The notes beneath the pieces were generated by a model that saw only the letters and a program-made list of their open reading frames with translations, was not told the origin of the DNA and did no database searches. Made by a program: the position numbers and the translations under genes. 58,734 bases of DNA from Fibrobacteria bacterium (lineage in GTDB: Bacteria > Fibrobacterota > Fibrobacteria > UBA11236): contig JBJHDK010000008.1 in the NCBI GenBank assembly GCA_050486505.1, forward strand, positions 1 to 58,734. The letters run 5' to 3'. How positions within the stretch are numbered: position 1 is the first letter of the stretch; every line of letters starts with the position of its first letter. Below, piece by piece: positions 45,177 to 52,471 of the stretch.

Positions 45177-45644
45177 GGTGTTTCCGAAAGCAAAAGGTTT
45201 TTGCGGAGGTTCAAGCTAAGTAACAGTCAAAAAATAAGGCTTGAAGCATTCAGCGGGGTTGATTTTTGCGTTTGAAATCGAAAGTGCAAAAGAGGAGTGG
45301 GGGCTGCGCATGCCGGCAACCCTTCGCTTCGGGCGCTGCCTCCATGAAAGTCCCGTCTCGGGAATCACTGGCAGTACGTCGCCGCGTCAAGAAACCCGAG
45401 CGGAGCCGCAATTGACTTTATGACATTCATCCGCATTAATGTTGCCAAATGACTCTATTTTGTACCCATATTTAATTGCAGCTGGTATTTTCATCGCGTT
45501 GGAAAACGCGCAAAAGTGCAATTTAATTGAAATATTCTGCCAATATGTCAATTTTACGCTATAATGTAAAAAAATCACAGTAATGCCATATAGTCAATAT
45601 TGGTACCCTTGGACGGTCGTGGCGTCGTGGGGATTTTATATGGC

Positions 45645-46652
45645 ATGGACATCAACACATTAAGGGTTGAACACCCGGAATCACAGGCGAACCGGGATGG
45701 AAGTGGTCCGCTCGCGGTGGCCGGTTCTCGTGGCATTCACGGAACCACCAAGGTTCGGCCCCGCGCATTTTCGGGCGGAAGGCTCGTCCGGGGCCTGCTC
45801 GTTGTTCTGGTTCTGCTTTTGTCATCGGCTTGCTCCCGCAACAGAACAGCCGTCGGGCCCGAGGATGATGCCCGCCTCGTTCTGGGTGTGCAGCTCGAGA
45901 ACGTGAACCTTCGCGCGGGTGAAGGTGCGGGGCTCGGCAAGTCCTCGGAAATCATTTTGCAGCACTTGATTCTGACGTTGACCTCGAGCGTGGAATCCGA
46001 TCCGGTGATCCGCGACACGATCCTTGCGGGGGCGGAAGGCTTCTCGCCCAACGCCATGATGCCGCAACAGGTTTCGGCGAGTTACAACGTCAGAGCTTTG
46101 CGCAGCTGGACGATCGATGTCCAGACCCGTGACATCAACGATTCCCTCATTCATTTCGCAACGACGACTGTCGGGAACCTCGGCCTGGGCGAGACCCGCG
46201 GGGTTCTCCTGAACCTTGCATCGCGCTTCGCGGTTTACTCGGCGGGCTTCGTGCTGCCCGACAGCATCGGCTCGGTGACGGGAGAGTTCCGGGAGCAGCT
46301 CAAGGTCAACCGCTTCGTCATCGTTGTGGATGGGGATACCGTGCGGGATACCACGCGTCCGGCACAGCAATACTTTGCTCCCGCCCCCGCGCGGCATGTC
46401 GTGGACTACAACTACGCGCGCGTCGATGCGAGCCACACCGTGGCGCTTTACGTCTACGGGGACCTCAACGACTGGCCGGCAGGCTTACCCCTGTACAGCG
46501 GTGCGTTCGTCATTTCTTCTCCCGATTCCAGCTACACGCCCGTGCTGGCCTGGACAGGCCCGAGCACGGGAATGCCCGGCCTCGAGGTCACTCTTGGCGC
46601 CGTCAACGTCGTGAACATCGAGCCGGTGGTTCCGGTAAATCCTTTGCCCTGA
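45645..46652 (+). CDS. Lipoprotein, paralog P1 of a putative pilin family (start uncertain)
   Basis: Lipobox LSSAC; GLGKS; VRALRSWTI; LPDSI; LAWTGPSTG; C-terminal LEVTLGAVNVVNIEPVVP. Confidence 0.75.
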   Translation: MDINTLRVEHPESQANRDGSGPLAVAGSRGIHGTTKVRPRAFSGGRLVRGLLVVLVLLLSSACSRNRTAVGPEDDARLVLGVQLENVNLRAGEGAGLGKSSEIILQHLILTLTSSVESDPVIRDTILAGAEGFSPNAMMPQQVSASYNVRALRSWTIDVQTRDINDSLIHFATTTVGNLGLGETRGVLLNLASRFAVYSAGFVLPDSIGSVTGEFREQLKVNRFVIVVDGDTVRDTTRPAQQYFAPAPARHVVDYNYARVDASHTVALYVYGDLNDWPAGLPLYSGAFVISSPDSSYTPVLAWTGPSTGMPGLEVTLGAVNVVNIEPVVPVNPLP

Positions 46653-46711
46653 CCTCAAGTTTCATCAACAGCAGAACACCTCACAATCAATCACCACCCT
46701 TAGGAGTCAAC

Positions 46712-47605
46712 ATGAAATCCCTCAACCTCTTAACCCTCGGGGCCTTGGCCCTGGGAACCGCAGTCCTGACGGGCTGCTTCTCCTCGGAGTCGAATCCTGC
46801 ATCATCGGTGCGCGACGACTTCGGTTCCGTCGTCATTCAGGCGCGCACCGGCAACGTGGACGCCCTGGGCAAGCCCGGCCTGGGCAAGGGTGCCGTGATC
46901 ACGCTCGACTCGCTGGTCATCACGGCCATCTCGAATGCCTCGACGCCCGATACCATCGTGGTGGGCCTGGCCGTCGGCGACAGCGGCTTCTCCGCCGATG
47001 CGACCGAGGACCAGAACATCGGCGTCGTGCTGAACCTGCGCGCCTTGCGCAGCTGGACGATCTCCGCCTACACCAAGGATGTGAACGACTCGGTGATCCA
47101 TGTCGGATCCCAGTCCGTCAACAATCTGCTGGCAGGCCAGACGCGCTTCGTGAACCTCTCGGCGAACCCCCTGTTCGCGATGTACAAGGCGAAGTTCAAC
47201 TTCCCCGACAGCATCTTCTCGCCGAGCGGTCTCTTCGGGCAGCAGGTGCAGCTGAGCCGCATCGAGCTGATCATCGACGGGGAACTCGTCGCGGATTCCA
47301 TCGGCACGTTCGATCCGGCCACCGACTACGAAATCTCGTACGATTACGTCTCCGTCGACGCGGACAGCGTGACCTTGCGGGTCCACGGCACCCTGGACGG
47401 TGCGGATGCCCCGTGGAATGCCGAAAACCTTCTCTACACCCGCACGCGTGCCATTGAGGATTTGAACCCGACCGCGGTGACTCAGGTCGCCCTGAACTGG
47501 ACAGGTCCCACGGGCGGCGTTTCGAGCCTCACGGTGAACATCGGCAAGGTCGGCACCTTCGAAATCGAAGGCCAGACGCCCGACACCGTCCTGGCCAAGC
47601 GCTGA
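46712..47605 (+). CDS. Lipoprotein, paralog P2 (candidate major subunit)
   Basis: Strong RBS TAGGAG; lipobox LTGC; GLGKG; LRALRSWTI; FPDSI; LNWTGPTGG; C-terminal LTVNIGKVGTFEIEGQTP. Confidence 0.8.
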   Translation: MKSLNLLTLGALALGTAVLTGCFSSESNPASSVRDDFGSVVIQARTGNVDALGKPGLGKGAVITLDSLVITAISNASTPDTIVVGLAVGDSGFSADATEDQNIGVVLNLRALRSWTISAYTKDVNDSVIHVGSQSVNNLLAGQTRFVNLSANPLFAMYKAKFNFPDSIFSPSGLFGQQVQLSRIELIIDGELVADSIGTFDPATDYEISYDYVSVDADSVTLRVHGTLDGADAPWNAENLLYTRTRAIEDLNPTAVTQVALNWTGPTGGVSSLTVNIGKVGTFEIEGQTPDTVLAKR

Positions 47606-47631
47606 GACGAGGTTTCGCGCAATCCCGACCG

Positions 47632-47671
47632 GATGCATACGGGGAATCCCTGCGATTCTCCGTACAGCATC
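47632..47671 (+). other. Intergenic stem-loop after P2
   Basis: TACGGGGAATC (47638-47648) pairs with GATTCTCCGTA (47654-47664), extended by GATGC/GCATC; no U tract. Confidence 0.65.
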
Positions 47672-47742
47672 GAGCACTTCCAGAGCTGCCACGCATGTCG
47701 CTATGACCTGAAGTTCGAACACGGAATCAAGACAAGGAACCC

Positions 47743-48645
47743 ATGAGACGCAGCACTCCGCAGAACCTCCCGAGAAATGCACGGGCATGGCTCGTCCTGG
47801 CGACGGCCTCGGTGCTGCTTTCGGGCTGTCTCTCCGCGGGGCAGGTCGCGGGGCCGAAGCCCCCAGCGGATGCCGACGACATCGTCCTCAATCTCCGCAT
47901 GGGTGTCGGCAGCGTGGCGACCCTGAATAAATCCGCAGTGATTTCGCTCGACAGAATGGTCGTGGTGATGTCCTCGAGCGCCAACGACACCATCCGGGAT
48001 ACCATCACCACCACGACGACACCGGCCTTGAGTCCCGTCTCCACAACGGGCCAAACCATCCAGAAGAACTACGACCTGAAAGCGCTGCGCTCCTGGAAAA
48101 TCACGGTGACATCCTTCGATGTTCTCGACAGCATCATCCACCGCGACTCCGCGACGATCCCGGTGCTTTACGCAGGAGACTCCGTCGGCGTGAACCTGAA
48201 TCTTTCGTCGCGGTTCGCCATGTACGAAGCGAGGTTCCTGTCGCTGCCCGACAGCATCCAGTCGGCGACCCCGGGGCAACCCAAGCAGGAACTGTGCATC
48301 GACCGCCTCGTGCTCGAAATCGACTCAACCCCCGTCAGGGATTCGACCTCGTCCGGCCCCTGTTTTGCTGCCCTGACGACGCATGTGCTGTCGTATGATT
48401 ACGTCGAAACGGGGACGCGCCAGGTCAGGTTGCTGGCATACGGGCCGATGAACCACTGGGATGTCGCCTTGCCCTTGTTCGATGGATCCACGAACGTGAA
48501 TGTCGGCGCCGGCGCCGATTCGACGGTCGCCCTCAACCTGGCGTGGGTCGGTCCCACGACGGGAAGCGGCAACCTCGAGGTCCAGTTGGGGCGCGTCGGA
48601 AAGGTCACGGTCAACGGGACGCTCCCGGGAACCGTGATGCCCTGA
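47743..48645 (+). CDS. Lipoprotein, paralog P3
   Basis: Lipobox LSGC; TLNKS; LKALRSWKI; LPDSI; LAWVGPTTG; C-terminal LEVQLGRVGKVTVNGTLPG. Confidence 0.8.
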   Translation: MRRSTPQNLPRNARAWLVLATASVLLSGCLSAGQVAGPKPPADADDIVLNLRMGVGSVATLNKSAVISLDRMVVVMSSSANDTIRDTITTTTTPALSPVSTTGQTIQKNYDLKALRSWKITVTSFDVLDSIIHRDSATIPVLYAGDSVGVNLNLSSRFAMYEARFLSLPDSIQSATPGQPKQELCIDRLVLEIDSTPVRDSTSSGPCFAALTTHVLSYDYVETGTRQVRLLAYGPMNHWDVALPLFDGSTNVNVGAGADSTVALNLAWVGPTTGSGNLEVQLGRVGKVTVNGTLPGTVMP

Positions 48646-48646
48646 G

Positions 48647-51600
48647 ATGAAGACGCCTGTCCCCACACGCGCGTGTCGGCGGGTGTTTCCGGCCTGGGCG
48701 CCCGCGCTTGTGGCTGCATTGTTCCTCACGTCGTGCCTGCTGGATTCCCGCGGCGATCAGCGTGCGCGTCCGGGGGCCGGGGAAACCGGAAACGTGGTTC
48801 TCAATCTCGGGCTGGAGCGGAGCCGCGACATCGTCCTCTCCAAGTCCGCGGCGGATACGACCTTCGAGCTCGACTCACTCATCATCGTGCTGACTGCTCC
48901 CGGAGCCGACACTCTGGTTCATCGCTATCCCTTTGCGGGGCGGCCCGACACCGGCAACATCGTGCTCGCCGACCCGCTCGAATTCGAGCTCGATGCCTTG
49001 CGCAACTGGAAGGCGCGCATCTATTCCATCGACATCAGGGAGTCCCCGTTCCGCCGCGACACCGTGCATCTCGATTCCGTAACCTTCGGCGTGCTTCCGA
49101 CCGACACGACCTTCGTTTCGAAAACGGTTTCTCCCGCGTTTTCCATTCTCCGCGTCCGCTTCCTTTCTTCCCAGGCCGATTCGATCCCCAACAACGTGCT
49201 CTACCTGCGGCTGCGCGTCGATGGCGAAACGCGCGACTCCGTGGTGCTCGGCGGCAAGAACGCAAGCCTGAACTGGCTGCAGACCTTGCCCGGGAGCACC
49301 ATCTTCGCCGCGGGGGATTCCGGCCGCATCCTCAAGTCGGTCAGCGACGCCCAGACCAATGATTCGTCAAGCTGGGTCGAGACCGTCGTGTCCACGAACC
49401 CCCTCGTGGGGGGCTACTTCGTCGACGCGAACAACGGGTACGTGGTTTCCGTGACGGGGCAAACCTATGTGACCACCAACGGGGGGAACTCTTGGGTGAC
49501 ACGTGCGACCACGGCGGACTCCCTGAGCGGGGTTTACTTCACGGGCACGACCACGGGCTTCGCGATCGGCCGCAACGGCAGTATCTACAAGACGGCGAAC
49601 AGCGCCAACGGCTGGCATACCTTGGTGAGCAACACCACGCAGCACCTCAACGGCATCAGCTTCCCGAGCGCCGACGTTGGGTATGTCGTGGGAGAGAACG
49701 AGACCATTCTGAAGACCGAGAACGGTTCCGCGCCGGGAGGCAGCGCGCCGGAGTGGGGGGGGGTCATCTGGTCCCCCATTGCGGGGGGATGGTTCCCGCA
49801 GACGAGCGGAACCACGGTGCGCGTTTCCGACATCCATTTCGTCGATTCCCTGTGGGGATGGGTGGTCGGCGAGGGCGGCTATGTGCGGCGAACGGTTAAC
49901 GGAGGTGCCACGTGGCTCGACCGCAGCGGGTTGAACGTTTCCAGCCCCAATGCCATTTGGTTCAGCGACTCGACGAAAGGGTACGCGGTGGGGGCCAACG
50001 GAACCATGAGTCAGTACAGCAGCGAGTGGCACTGGGCCGACCGCAGTGCAAGCAACGGCACGAGCGAACACCTCTACGACGTTCAATTCGTCGGGGTGGA
50101 TACAGGATATGTCGTGGGGGCCAATGGAACATTGTTGCGTACGATCAACGGCAGTAACACTGCCTGGCCGGGCGCGAGCTGGGCACAGCAATTTCTTCCT
50201 GGGTCGAATGACCTGGCCTGGTTCGTCAAAACCTCCGGAACGACGAACGCATTCAACGCCCTGCGTTTCGCGACGGCAACCACCGGCTGGGCCGTCGGCG
50301 CCTCGGGCGTCATCCGCCGCACCACCGATGCCGGCGAAACCTGGACGACGCAATCGGGCGGCACATCGACCTTTCATGCCGTGCATGCCCGCACCGCCTC
50401 GGAGGCGTATGCCGTGGGGGTTTCGGGAACGCTGCGCCGCACCACCGACGGCGGCACCAACTGGGTGTCCGTTCCCACTGGGGTCACGACCGAACTGCGC
50501 GGCGTGGCCGCGAACTCGGGGACCGTGGGCTGGGTGGTGGGCGCCTCCAATGTGATTCGCAGCACCAATAGCCTGAACAACGCGACCCCGACCTGGACTG
50601 ACCGCAATGTCGGAACCGGGGATTACAACGCGATCAACATCACCGGCGGGCGTGTCTGGGTGGTGGGCAGCAACGGGCAGGTGCGCCGCACGGGCAACCT
50701 GAATCACAACTCGGGCTTTTCCCAGGTCGGGAATGCCAACCTTGGAACGACGAATCTGAGGGGCGTGTACTTCCTCCCCAGCACCAACGCCACCGGATGG
50801 GTCGTCGGCGACGGCGGTTTCATCGCCCGCACGACCAACGGGACGGCCGGCAATGCCAACAACGTCACGTGGACGGTTCAGTCCGCGCCGACCACCGAGA
50901 ACCTGACGGACGTGTATTTCGTGGACGCCAACATCGGCTATGTCACCGGCGCCTCCGGTACGATTCTCAAGACAACGAACGGCGGAACGTCCTGGACGCT
51001 TCTCTCTTCCGGCACTTCGCAAGCGCTTTCCGGCGTGCATGCGATCAGCTCCGACGCGGTCCTCGTCGCCGGAGGCAACGGCGTCATCCTGAAAACCACG
51101 ATCGGCGGCACGGTGCCGGCGAACGTCAACCACCTGCGCTCCGTTTCCATGGTCGGGTTGACTACGGCATATGTCGCCGGCGCGAACGGTACGATCGGCA
51201 AGACCGTGAATGCCGGAGGCGCCTGGACGTTGCAGGCTAGCGGCACCACACAGACCCTGAACGGCATCAGCTTCGTGAACGCGAACGTCGGCTGGGCTGT
51301 CGGCAATACCGGAACCATTCTGAAAACCGTGAACGGGGGGGGCACGTGGTCGTCCCAAACCAGTGGCACGACCCAGCATCTTCTCTCCGTGCGGGCGATC
51401 TCCGCCGACGTCGCTTACGCTTCGGGAAACTCCGGCGTCGTCCTCAAAACCGTCGACGGCGGCGCCACCTGGTACCAGCAGGAAACCCCCGTCACCCAGA
51501 ACCTGGGGCGAGTGCACTTCCAGAGCGCCGGCAACGGATTCGTCGTGGGTGAAGACGGGACCATCCTCAAGGCGGGCAACGGAGGTGACAACTGGACGGG

Positions 51601-52198
51601 GGGAGGAATCAAACGCTCCCTCAAGGGGGTTCACTTCGCCAACCCCGACACGGGGTGGATCGTCGGGGCGGATGGCGTCATCCTGAACACCCGTGACGGG
51701 GGCAACAGTTGGACGCTGCAGCACCAGGAAGACGGCCTGACCTTATACGGGATTTATTTCGCGAATGCCTCGACCGGCTGGGCTTCCGGCGAAAACGGCC
51801 GTGTCCTCAAAACCGTGAACGGCGGTAACACCTGGGTTCCCCAGGCCAGCGGTACCGACGTGACCTTGCGTTGGATCCACTTCCGCGACGCCAACCGGGG
51901 ATTCATCATCGGGGGGACCGAATCCATCCTCGAAACTTCGGACGGGGGCTCCGACTGGTCGGGCCTCTTCGTCGGGGTTCCCGGTCAACGCACTTTCGAT
52001 CGTACCCTGTCGTGGAAATACCTGAAGCCGAACCAGTCGAACCAGGTGATTCTCGAGGCGGTCGACCGCTTCAGCCAGCCGATGCGCGGGTATCAATCCG
52101 TCATTAACCTCACGGTCGGGGCTGGGCAGGATTCCACGCTGGTTTCGCCCATGACGCGTTGCGGCTACGACCCGCCCAACGACAACTGCCTCCCGTAG
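48647..52198 (+). CDS. Large lipoprotein P4: same scaffold with ~900 aa of BNR/Ycf48-like propeller repeats inserted (candidate tip adhesin)
   Basis: Lipobox LTSC; VLSKS; LDALRNWK; many GWxVGxxGxIxxTxxGGxxW repeats; scaffold resumes at LSWKY...VGAGQDST. Confidence 0.8.
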   Translation: MKTPVPTRACRRVFPAWAPALVAALFLTSCLLDSRGDQRARPGAGETGNVVLNLGLERSRDIVLSKSAADTTFELDSLIIVLTAPGADTLVHRYPFAGRPDTGNIVLADPLEFELDALRNWKARIYSIDIRESPFRRDTVHLDSVTFGVLPTDTTFVSKTVSPAFSILRVRFLSSQADSIPNNVLYLRLRVDGETRDSVVLGGKNASLNWLQTLPGSTIFAAGDSGRILKSVSDAQTNDSSSWVETVVSTNPLVGGYFVDANNGYVVSVTGQTYVTTNGGNSWVTRATTADSLSGVYFTGTTTGFAIGRNGSIYKTANSANGWHTLVSNTTQHLNGISFPSADVGYVVGENETILKTENGSAPGGSAPEWGGVIWSPIAGGWFPQTSGTTVRVSDIHFVDSLWGWVVGEGGYVRRTVNGGATWLDRSGLNVSSPNAIWFSDSTKGYAVGANGTMSQYSSEWHWADRSASNGTSEHLYDVQFVGVDTGYVVGANGTLLRTINGSNTAWPGASWAQQFLPGSNDLAWFVKTSGTTNAFNALRFATATTGWAVGASGVIRRTTDAGETWTTQSGGTSTFHAVHARTASEAYAVGVSGTLRRTTDGGTNWVSVPTGVTTELRGVAANSGTVGWVVGASNVIRSTNSLNNATPTWTDRNVGTGDYNAINITGGRVWVVGSNGQVRRTGNLNHNSGFSQVGNANLGTTNLRGVYFLPSTNATGWVVGDGGFIARTTNGTAGNANNVTWTVQSAPTTENLTDVYFVDANIGYVTGASGTILKTTNGGTSWTLLSSGTSQALSGVHAISSDAVLVAGGNGVILKTTIGGTVPANVNHLRSVSMVGLTTAYVAGANGTIGKTVNAGGAWTLQASGTTQTLNGISFVNANVGWAVGNTGTILKTVNGGGTWSSQTSGTTQHLLSVRAISADVAYASGNSGVVLKTVDGGATWYQQETPVTQNLGRVHFQSAGNGFVVGEDGTILKAGNGGDNWTGGGIKRSLKGVHFANPDTGWIVGADGVILNTRDGGNSWTLQHQEDGLTLYGIYFANASTGWASGENGRVLKTVNGGNTWVPQASGTDVTLRWIHFRDANRGFIIGGTESILETSDGGSDWSGLFVGVPGQRTFDRTLSWKYLKPNQSNQVILEAVDRFSQPMRGYQSVINLTVGAGQDSTLVSPMTRCGYDPPNDNCLP

Positions 52199-52213
52199 GC
52201 CGGATCCGGCGGA

Positions 52214-52471
52214 TCAGCCGTCGATCAGACCGGGAAGCTTCACTTCGATCGTGACGCTCTCAACCGCCTGCAGCGTCATGGAGAGGGAATCGCTTTCCGG
52301 AGCGGCTGCGGTTTCCTTGGCTCTCACGTCCACGAACTCCACGGCTCCTGCGGATCCGCCGGAATGCGCGGGCGAGACCTCTTCGACGGGAGAAAGCAGG
52401 CAGCCGGTCATCCACGCCGTGACCACCACGAAGCCGATCGACTTGAAGATGTTGGTGCTGCGGGGGAACAT
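52214..52471 (-). CDS. Small lipoprotein P5 ending in the conserved P1-P3 C-terminal strand
   Basis: Lipobox MTGC; GGAG RBS; C-terminal SLSMTLQAVESVTIEVKLPG. Confidence 0.7.
   Translation of the reverse strand: MFPRSTNIFKSIGFVVVTAWMTGCLLSPVEEVSPAHSGGSAGAVEFVDVRAKETAAAPESDSLSMTLQAVESVTIEVKLPGLIDG

Follow-up and report, generated by a model that had tools for sequence, protein, structure and literature searches.

A four-gene lipoprotein cluster of an uncultured Fibrobacterota bacterium as a candidate type V-like strand-exchange fibre

The window analysed here is a stretch of 58,734 nucleotides from a Fibrobacteria bacterium (assembly GCA_050486505.1, contig JBJHDK010000008.1), whose genome of 2.4 Mb is 99% complete in 125 contigs. 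It contains four co-directional genes on the plus strand, P1 to P4, separated by spacers of 59, 137 and 1 nucleotides, which encode lipoproteins of one family. We consider the chances slightly better than even that P1 to P3 are stalk or adaptor subunits and P4 is the tip of a fibre assembled by a strand exchange as in the type V pili of Bacteroidota. The claim is that the P1-P4 system works like type V pili, not that it is a type V system. The first-pass annotation of the region had proposed a type V-like pilus, analogous or remotely homologous to the known ones and built from five lipoproteins. Of this proposal the strand exchange is supported in silico, homology to FimA/Mfa is not shown, and the system comprises four genes, as the fifth lipoprotein, P5, is not supported as a part of it.

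Pairwise comparison revealed 33% identity over 290 residues between P2 and P3 (E 1e-34) and 36% identity over 255 residues between P2 and P1 (E 1e-42). By sequence, P1 to P3 are clearly paralogous, far above chance. The pairwise match of P4 is confined to the N-terminal part (E 2e-4), and the family profile matched P4 at positions 13-170 in a genome-wide search (E 1.8e-8) and at positions 10-189 in a two-sequence search (E 2.8e-15). The blocks ALR[SN]W, DSI and W.GP..G, from which the paralogy of the four proteins had been proposed, are indeed present. The same holds for the succession of a lipobox, one strand and an L-x-K motif in each protein: the spacing between the lipobox Cys and the Lys is 36, 37, 34 and 36 residues in P1, P2, P3 and P4, and AlphaFold2 places a single strand between the two (residues 37-46 of P2). 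P1 to P3 end in a common tail, which P4 lacks, in agreement with the earlier description. Neither P1 to P3 nor P5 has a match in Pfam or NCBIfam, and for P1 to P3 this agrees with the first-pass annotation, which recognised no known pilin family in the sequences.

The Lys and the tail, whose loss among homologs had been named as grounds for giving up the pilus interpretation, are both kept in the family. Lys59 of P2 is invariant in 34 of 34 close relatives, and 75 of 89 full-length sequences have Lys in this column. Among 169 full modules the aligned column contains Lys in 146 and Arg in none. According to our reading of the alignment about 11 of the other 23 modules carry the Lys in a misaligned position, and about 12 form a subgroup without L-x-K, with K or R directly before strand 2; none of the latter is found in this genome. 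The lipobox Cys is at least 90% conserved in both the 34-row and the 89-row alignment. Within the tail, V280 is kept in 85, G278 in 72, K/R279 in 74 and G281 in 72 of the 89 sequences. The conserved core is I-G-K/R-V-G, and the wider pattern h-x-h-x-h-G-K/R-V-G-x-h is the same as that of the N-terminal (anchor) strand. Beyond the tail the C-terminal ends are variable.

This likeness between both ends of the protein was quantified with a leave-one-out tail profile of 13 columns in 121 proteins (less than 60% identical, plus P1 to P3). In 64 of the 121 proteins no window outside the tail scored higher than the N-terminal strand, which came within the top 1% of windows in 72 proteins, within the top 5% in 102 and within the top 10% in 114. 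It ranked first of 278 windows in P1, first of 264 in P2 and eleventh of 267 in P3, the lower rank in P3 being caused by a one-residue indel relative to the tail. With a profile of 17 columns the match fell into a single identical register, 16 residues ahead of the Lys, in 49 of 120 proteins, and within the N-terminal strand zone in 54 of 120; for this zone 4.1% per protein is expected by chance. A binomial p-value would be overstated because the scanned proteins are related; the effect is still large. About 15 other strands per protein do not compete with the N-terminal strand; after it, the hairpin formed by strands 6 and 7 is selected most often. In the fifth family member of this genome, located on contig C38, the N-terminal strand GQANVSLKLERVG and the tail GQAEMTVTLGAVG are nearly alike, as is also the case in distant members. 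A tandem duplication, in which the tail would be the first strand of a lost third domain, was considered and is not supported, since the tail profile does not select the first strand of the second domain. The tail thus appears to copy the N-terminal strand in most of the family, as is expected if it must fit into the slot of the first strand, and this likeness provides an argument for strand donation that is independent of the structural models.

The fold of P2 was predicted with AlphaFold2. An alignment of 34 rows yielded a mean predicted local distance difference test score (pLDDT) of 68.9, and an alignment of 89 rows a pLDDT of 81.7, with values above 90 in the core, and a predicted template modelling score of 0.73. 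The model consists of two all-beta domains with seven and about nine strands. Besides the signal peptide, the segments of low confidence are residues 54-60, which form the Lys loop, and residues 283-290 and 295-297, which make up most of the end of the tail. In the monomer model the tail stays unplaced.

The models were compared with a set of 48,161 PDB representatives, and the best 50 rows were considered for each model. The N-terminal domain alone resembles pilotins, FN3 domains and prealbumin-like domains (2yjl, Z 9.1-9.5), and the second domain resembles C2 domains (Z 7.6-8.5). Among these best 50 rows, the only ones aligning both domains with a root-mean-square deviation (rmsd) below 7 Å are type V pilins of Bacteroidota, which account for 7 of 50 rows with the first model and 4 of 50 with the better one; other long alignments have an rmsd above 20 Å. 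For both models together, the type V matches have Z scores of 6.9-8.5 over 167-206 residues with an rmsd of 4.2-6.5 Å. Those of the first model are 4qdg (Z 8.4, 186 residues, 4.3 Å), 3up6 (Z 8.3, 191 residues, 5.5 Å), 3gf8 (Z 7.5, 181 residues, 4.3 Å), 3r4r (Z 7.4, 183 residues, 6.5 Å), 3liu (Z 7.2, 206 residues, 5.3 Å), Mfa2 (5nfi; Z 7.2, 185 residues, 4.7 Å) and Mfa3 (5nf4; Z 6.9, 167 residues, 4.7 Å). With Foldseek the top query template modelling scores (TM-scores) of 0.30-0.31 were obtained for 3gf8, 3r4r, 3up6, 5cag and 5nfi (E 5e-4 to 2.5e-3). PMC5789003 assigns 3gf8 and 4qdg to anchors and 3liu, 3up6 and 4jg5 to shaft or tip pilins, and reports that Mfa1 to Mfa4 share 10-15% identity among themselves at an rmsd of 3.4-4.5 Å. 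Because Z scores of 7-8 are common for unrelated models, as the structure tool itself cautions, these matches indicate a shared layout and not homology. With regard to the expected two beta-sandwich domains as in FimA and Mfa1, two all-beta domains are predicted and type V pilins are the only two-domain matches, but the scores are middling (Z 7-8.5, TM-score 0.30).

A complex of two copies of P2 residues 60-297, which corresponds to a cut after the Lys, was modelled with the 89-row alignment; by design the first strand is absent from this construct. The interaction prediction scores from aligned errors (ipSAE) were 0.52, 0.50 and 0.43 (median 0.50), compared with 0.00 for the best of three controls. 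In the calibration of this score, which is rough when a custom alignment is used, 20 of 30 solved homo-pairs attained the mark, as did 1 of 23 single chains. At least 96% of the contacts are common to the runs, and the partner pLDDT is at least 84. The predicted interface is asymmetric and head-to-tail: copy 1 contributes residues 265-295 together with 168-177 and 228-235, and on the side of copy 2 the N-terminal domain and a portion of the second domain take part, but its tail does not. Ile277 contacts residues 68, 103, 121, 130 and 151, and residues 275-285 run along residues 151-158. According to these contacts the tail would lie between strands 2 and 7, in the place of the first strand, and then continue to the second domain of the neighbour, a geometry that in the model can propagate. 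The multimer model trimmed at the Lys thus gave the donation of the C-terminal strand that the first-pass annotation had anticipated, here to the N-terminal domain of the neighbour, and not the arrangement it had named as contrary to its view, a fold without a first-strand groove and with the tail buried in the core: the tail is unplaced in the monomer and inserts in trans in the dimer model.

On this basis we propose the following assembly, in which we infer the cleavage, the surface location and the length of the polymer. Each subunit would be exported as a lipoprotein with two beta-sandwich domains, and its first (anchor) strand, residues 37-46 in P2, would sit in the N-terminal domain and tether the subunit to the membrane via the lipidated Cys. 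A Lys-specific protease would cut the loop with the conserved Leu-x-Lys that follows the anchor strand. The C-terminal tail of the next subunit would then replace the anchor strand, a step which would join the subunits head to tail and release the acceptor from its lipid. P1 to P3 possess both groove and tail and would therefore be stalk or adaptor subunits. P4 has groove and Lys, no tail, and propellers in its second domain, and would therefore be the binding subunit at the tip.

The assignment of P4 to the tip, also part of the first-pass annotation, is supported in silico by its architecture and by the order of genes in related clusters. After the N-terminal part P4 consists of Ycf48/BNR-type beta-propellers (Pfam PSII_BNR, E 5.1e-59, 11 stretches), and residues 1120-1138 give a non-significant match to profile positions 204-221, a weak remnant of the second domain. 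A protein of 1150 residues in the relative G040 has the same layout in a clearer form. Both giants begin with the N-terminal part and show a weak piece of the second domain near the other end, and the propellers therefore appear to be inserted. The tail is lacking in P4, in the giants of G040 and G188 and in the last genes of two distant loci (L029 and L030), and tail-bearing short genes followed by a tail-less giant are found in the window, in G188, in G040 and in both distant loci. The propellers would perhaps bind polysaccharide.

Searching 5.8 billion protein clusters yielded 33 proteins, all unnamed or annotated as hypothetical and none with a Pfam domain. An exhaustive search of 1.84 billion representatives gave 308 matches at E≤0.001, 176 at E≤1e-10 and 32 at E≤1e-30. 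In named genomes, a locus search found none with P2 alone as query and one with an alignment of 18 rows. The family was found only in uncultured Fibrobacterota, in 40 of 201 sampled genomes of this phylum (tallies that take in one unpublished genome, G194). It is present in 18 of the 21 genomes of the window's own taxonomic family and in none of the 78 of the largest taxonomic family sampled. Of 216 pooled family proteins, 105 are short and end with the tail, 8 retain the tail and have BNR propellers inserted near profile positions 220-223, and 5 have an extension and no tail; apart from 60 proteins with domains after the tail, the remainder are fragments or overlong gene calls. The short paralogs come in runs of three to five.

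Some further members and neighbours of the family were recorded. The fifth member in this genome has 651 residues (C38:16464-17273; L020:5406-7361, minus strand) and consists of a module, the tail and about seven repeats of an AFRDGANG..TVMRW-type unit without a significant Pfam match; the neighbouring gene, which diverges from it (L020:3626-5311), encodes an S41 tail-specific protease with a PDZ domain that might conceivably trim domains located behind the tail. The protein P0109, with 1939 residues, gives 11 separate family matches, the best to query residues 162-221, a pattern suggesting that this giant repeats part of the second domain in tandem. Two distant Fibrobacterota genomes have a DUF4423 protein and an unannotated protein of about 260 residues ahead of their clusters (L029:10322-11946 and L030:5218-6914); the two may be a local regulator pair.

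The known type V pili comprise FimA/Mfa1 stalks, FimB/Mfa2 anchors and Mfa3-5/FimC-E tips, and share several properties with P1 to P4. The subunits are lipoprotein precursors with two beta-sandwich domains, as is predicted for P2, and the first strand is followed by a loop with a conserved basic residue. Their C-terminal strand replaces, as in the P2 model, the first strand of the neighbour and runs into the second domain. A tail-less subunit with extra binding domains stands at the end of the operon, like P4, and the operon contains no dedicated assembly genes. PMC13655056 gives the corresponding scheme: the anchor strand lies in the N-terminal domain, cleavage occurs in the loop between strands 1 and 2, the donor strands take over the places of this anchor strand and of one strand in the C-terminal domain, and tips have no donor strands. 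The same paper describes type V pili as unique to the class Bacteroidia, whereas the host here belongs to the Fibrobacteria. The two systems also differ in that the loop holds either Arg or Lys in type V pilins and strictly Lys in the Fibrobacterota family, that in the latter the anchor strand and the tail have one common sequence motif, that its second domain looks C2-like, that many of its members continue with domains after the tail, and that no anchor subunit or gingipain-type protease was found for P1 to P4.

Chaperone-usher pili (such as type 1 and P pili) resemble the P1-P4 model in that each Ig-like subunit receives in trans the strand that completes it. This donor strand shows alternating hydrophobic residues and a conserved Gly. 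In contrast to P1 to P4, the subunits are not lipoproteins, and a periplasmic chaperone and an outer-membrane usher are required; the Usher family (PF00577) had no match in the genome with a positive Escherichia coli control, a search aimed at the usher and not at the chaperone family. In these pili the donor strand is N-terminal and inserts antiparallel, according to PMC13655056. The sortase-assembled pili of Gram-positive bacteria share tandem Ig-like domains and a conserved Lys with the family, and weak Foldseek matches to Gram-positive pilins (SpaA, T-antigens) were obtained, with an rmsd to the P2 model of 12-17 Å. Sortase pili are covalent polymers that depend on LPXTG signals and sortases, and P1 to P4 contain no sorting signal.

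A number of observations weigh against a type V-like fibre. None of 89 family members matches a fimbrillin family at E≤1, the family profile finds no pilin among PDB sequences at E≤10, and PF08842, PF06321 and PF13149 detect nothing in the genome, with a positive control in Bacteroides thetaiotaomicron. The Z scores of the type V matches (7-8.5) are no higher than those of single-domain FN3, pilotin and C2 matches, and the TM-scores do not exceed 0.31. With no sequence or profile match and with middling structural scores, homology to FimA/Mfa is not shown. A common site for anchor strand and tail is deduced from the contact lists and the strand order of the models, and the predictor may place a free amphipathic tail in any first-strand slot left empty or may recall solved type V polymers. 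The Lys could instead be structural, as judged from the strand order it would lie at the same pole as the invariant Asp123 and the near-invariant Asp126. No anchor subunit was identified for the P1-P4 system, and no Lys-specific protease was found in the genome, whose single Peptidase_C25 is PorU-like and was rejected as a gingipain-like candidate. Across the loci no neighbour is conserved and no conserved assembly gene flanks the family clusters; type V operons likewise have no assembly gene. Moreover, in 60 of the 216 family proteins Laminin_G_3 (LamG), LRR, Big_9 (Ig-like) or unknown domains follow the tail, an arrangement that fits a donor strand only if the chain leaves the groove and continues. 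The organism is known only from a metagenome assembly, and the evidence for a fibre consists of predictions.

These 60 proteins are the strongest point for a rival explanation, in which the proteins are non-polymerising lipoproteins of the envelope and the module is a stalk that holds propellers, LamG and LRR domains off the membrane; Lys and tail would be structural, and any strand swap would stop at the dimer or be an artefact of prediction. The 60 proteins, and likewise the 8 with inserted propellers, have the appearance expected of a display scaffold, which would also agree with the lack of a protease, usher or other assembly gene conserved beside the clusters, with fold matches to generic beta-sandwiches at Z 7-9 and with a two-copy construct from which the first strand had been removed. 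We nevertheless regard it as rather doubtful, since it leaves unexplained the copying of the N-terminal strand by the tail in most family members, the unplaced tail of the monomer model, the predominance of short paralogs without cargo (105 of 216) and their occurrence in runs, and the fact that in the last gene of a run it is just the tail that is missing. Far less probable still is a covalent joining of the subunits through the conserved Lys, by isopeptide formation or a sortase-like transpeptidation with the Lys as nucleophile and PorU as possible enzyme. The occurrence of Lys in 146 of 169 modules and never Arg would be demanded by a nucleophile and not by a tryptic site, the genome encodes the PorU-like C25 enzyme, and Gram-positive pilins are among the weak Foldseek matches. 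A Lys-specific protease accounts equally well for the strict Lys, however, and the Lys is found in a loop beside the lipid anchor and not in the context of a pilin motif; Pfam shows no C-terminal sorting domain of the type IX secretion system and no sortase-type signal in P1 to P4, and their C-terminal ends vary after the tail.

The positions of the genes and features are compiled in Table 1. The start of P1 is uncertain, as TTG 45600, which opens the reading frame, ATG 45645 and GTG 45717 are all available. Ahead of the most plausible start the open reading frame has as many as 39 further codons (45600-45716), and the long N-terminal extension is probably not translated because the guanine-plus-cytosine (GC) content at the third codon position falls there from 0.75 to 0.59. 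In the upstream region one sigma-70-like site on the plus strand (45537-45565) matches 10 of 12 positions; it is weak evidence for a promoter since two sites were found in the region and 1.4 are expected. The flanking genes are unrelated housekeeping genes, encoding a cyclopropane-fatty-acid synthase and an FAD-binding protein upstream and a maltokinase-like protein, a DUF3347 protein and an AcrB-type pump downstream.

Table 1. Genes and sequence features of the P1-P4 region in the window; residues are numbered within each protein (ORF, open reading frame)
Feature	Position in window	Strand	Basis
AT-rich region 5' of P1	45420..45599	+	sequence
P1, lipoprotein subunit with tail	45645..46652	+	ORF listing and family profile (E 6.3e-92)
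P1 features (from ATG 45645): Cys63; Lys99; tail	Lys99 codon 45939-45941; tail ~46569-46649	+	sequence
P2, lipoprotein subunit with tail, most orthologs of the members	46712..47605	+	ORF, profile, alignments, models
P2 features: Cys22; N-terminal strand 37-46; Lys59; tail 269-295	strand ~46820-46849; Lys59 46886-46888; tail 47516-47596	+	
P3, lipoprotein subunit with tail; stop 1 nucleotide before the P4 start	47743..48645	+	ORF, family profile (E 2.9e-89)
P3 features: Cys29; Lys63; tail	Lys63 47929-47931; tail ~48562-48642	+	sequence
P4, lipoprotein of 1183 residues without tail, candidate tip adhesin	48647..52198	+	ORF, Pfam, family profile
P4 features: Cys30; Lys66	Lys66 48842-48844	+	sequence
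P4, family N-terminal domain and first part of second domain (residues 19-197)	48701-49237	+	family profile
P5, orphan ORF of 85 residues, lipobox Cys24; not counted in the system	52214..52471	-	no homolog

The first-pass annotation had assigned the role of the anchor to P5. This gene lies on the opposite strand, convergent with P4, a point absent from that annotation, and has no homolog, neither among the 5.8 billion protein clusters nor in 30 genomes of the same taxonomic family; moreover, its likeness to the tail (5.2 bits in a two-sequence search) is at noise level. For these three reasons the assignment was abandoned. P5 consists of a lipobox and about 60 residues, and it may be a real small gene because its GC content at the three codon positions (0.59/0.49/0.79) is gene-like.

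A PorV-like barrel was considered as an assembly partner and rejected, as it is unlinked to family genes here and absent from the distant loci. In three genomes of the same genus (G188, G182 and G040) the cluster follows a protein of about 800 residues with a Reg_prop propeller and a PorV-like barrel, and then an HU gene; the Reg_prop/PorV-like genes of these relatives are located at L017:427-2862, L018:6300-8678 and L036:4949-7303. The corresponding pair of this genome was found on another contig (C14:13083-15449; L022, L025), followed by PdxA and with no family gene nearby, and its match to the Reg_prop/PorV-like protein contains one in-frame TGA. It looks as if the cluster had moved away from this pair.

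Whether the Fibrobacterota own type V-like pili as a separate lineage, either of independent origin or after very deep divergence, is a question on which we lean slightly to the negative side; such pili would be clipped at Lys, would have a tail that copies the anchor strand and would form decorated adhesive fibres of modular subunits, with beta-propeller, LamG or LRR domains placed inside the module or added behind the tail. Our literature search found no paper linking type V pili to Fibrobacterota or neighbouring phyla. If this interpretation is true, protease-primed strand-exchange pili would not be peculiar to the Bacteroidia but an invention shared more widely in the FCB group (Fibrobacterota, Chlorobiota, Bacteroidota), and the range of the type V-like assembly mechanism would be widened to another phylum. 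The P1-P4 family would then offer a second, sequence-unrelated system in which to ask what strand exchange needs, one in which the tail visibly copies the anchor strand. Fibrobacterota are known for their attachment to plant polymers, and for the uncultured members of the phylum the fibre would be a candidate adhesion organelle.

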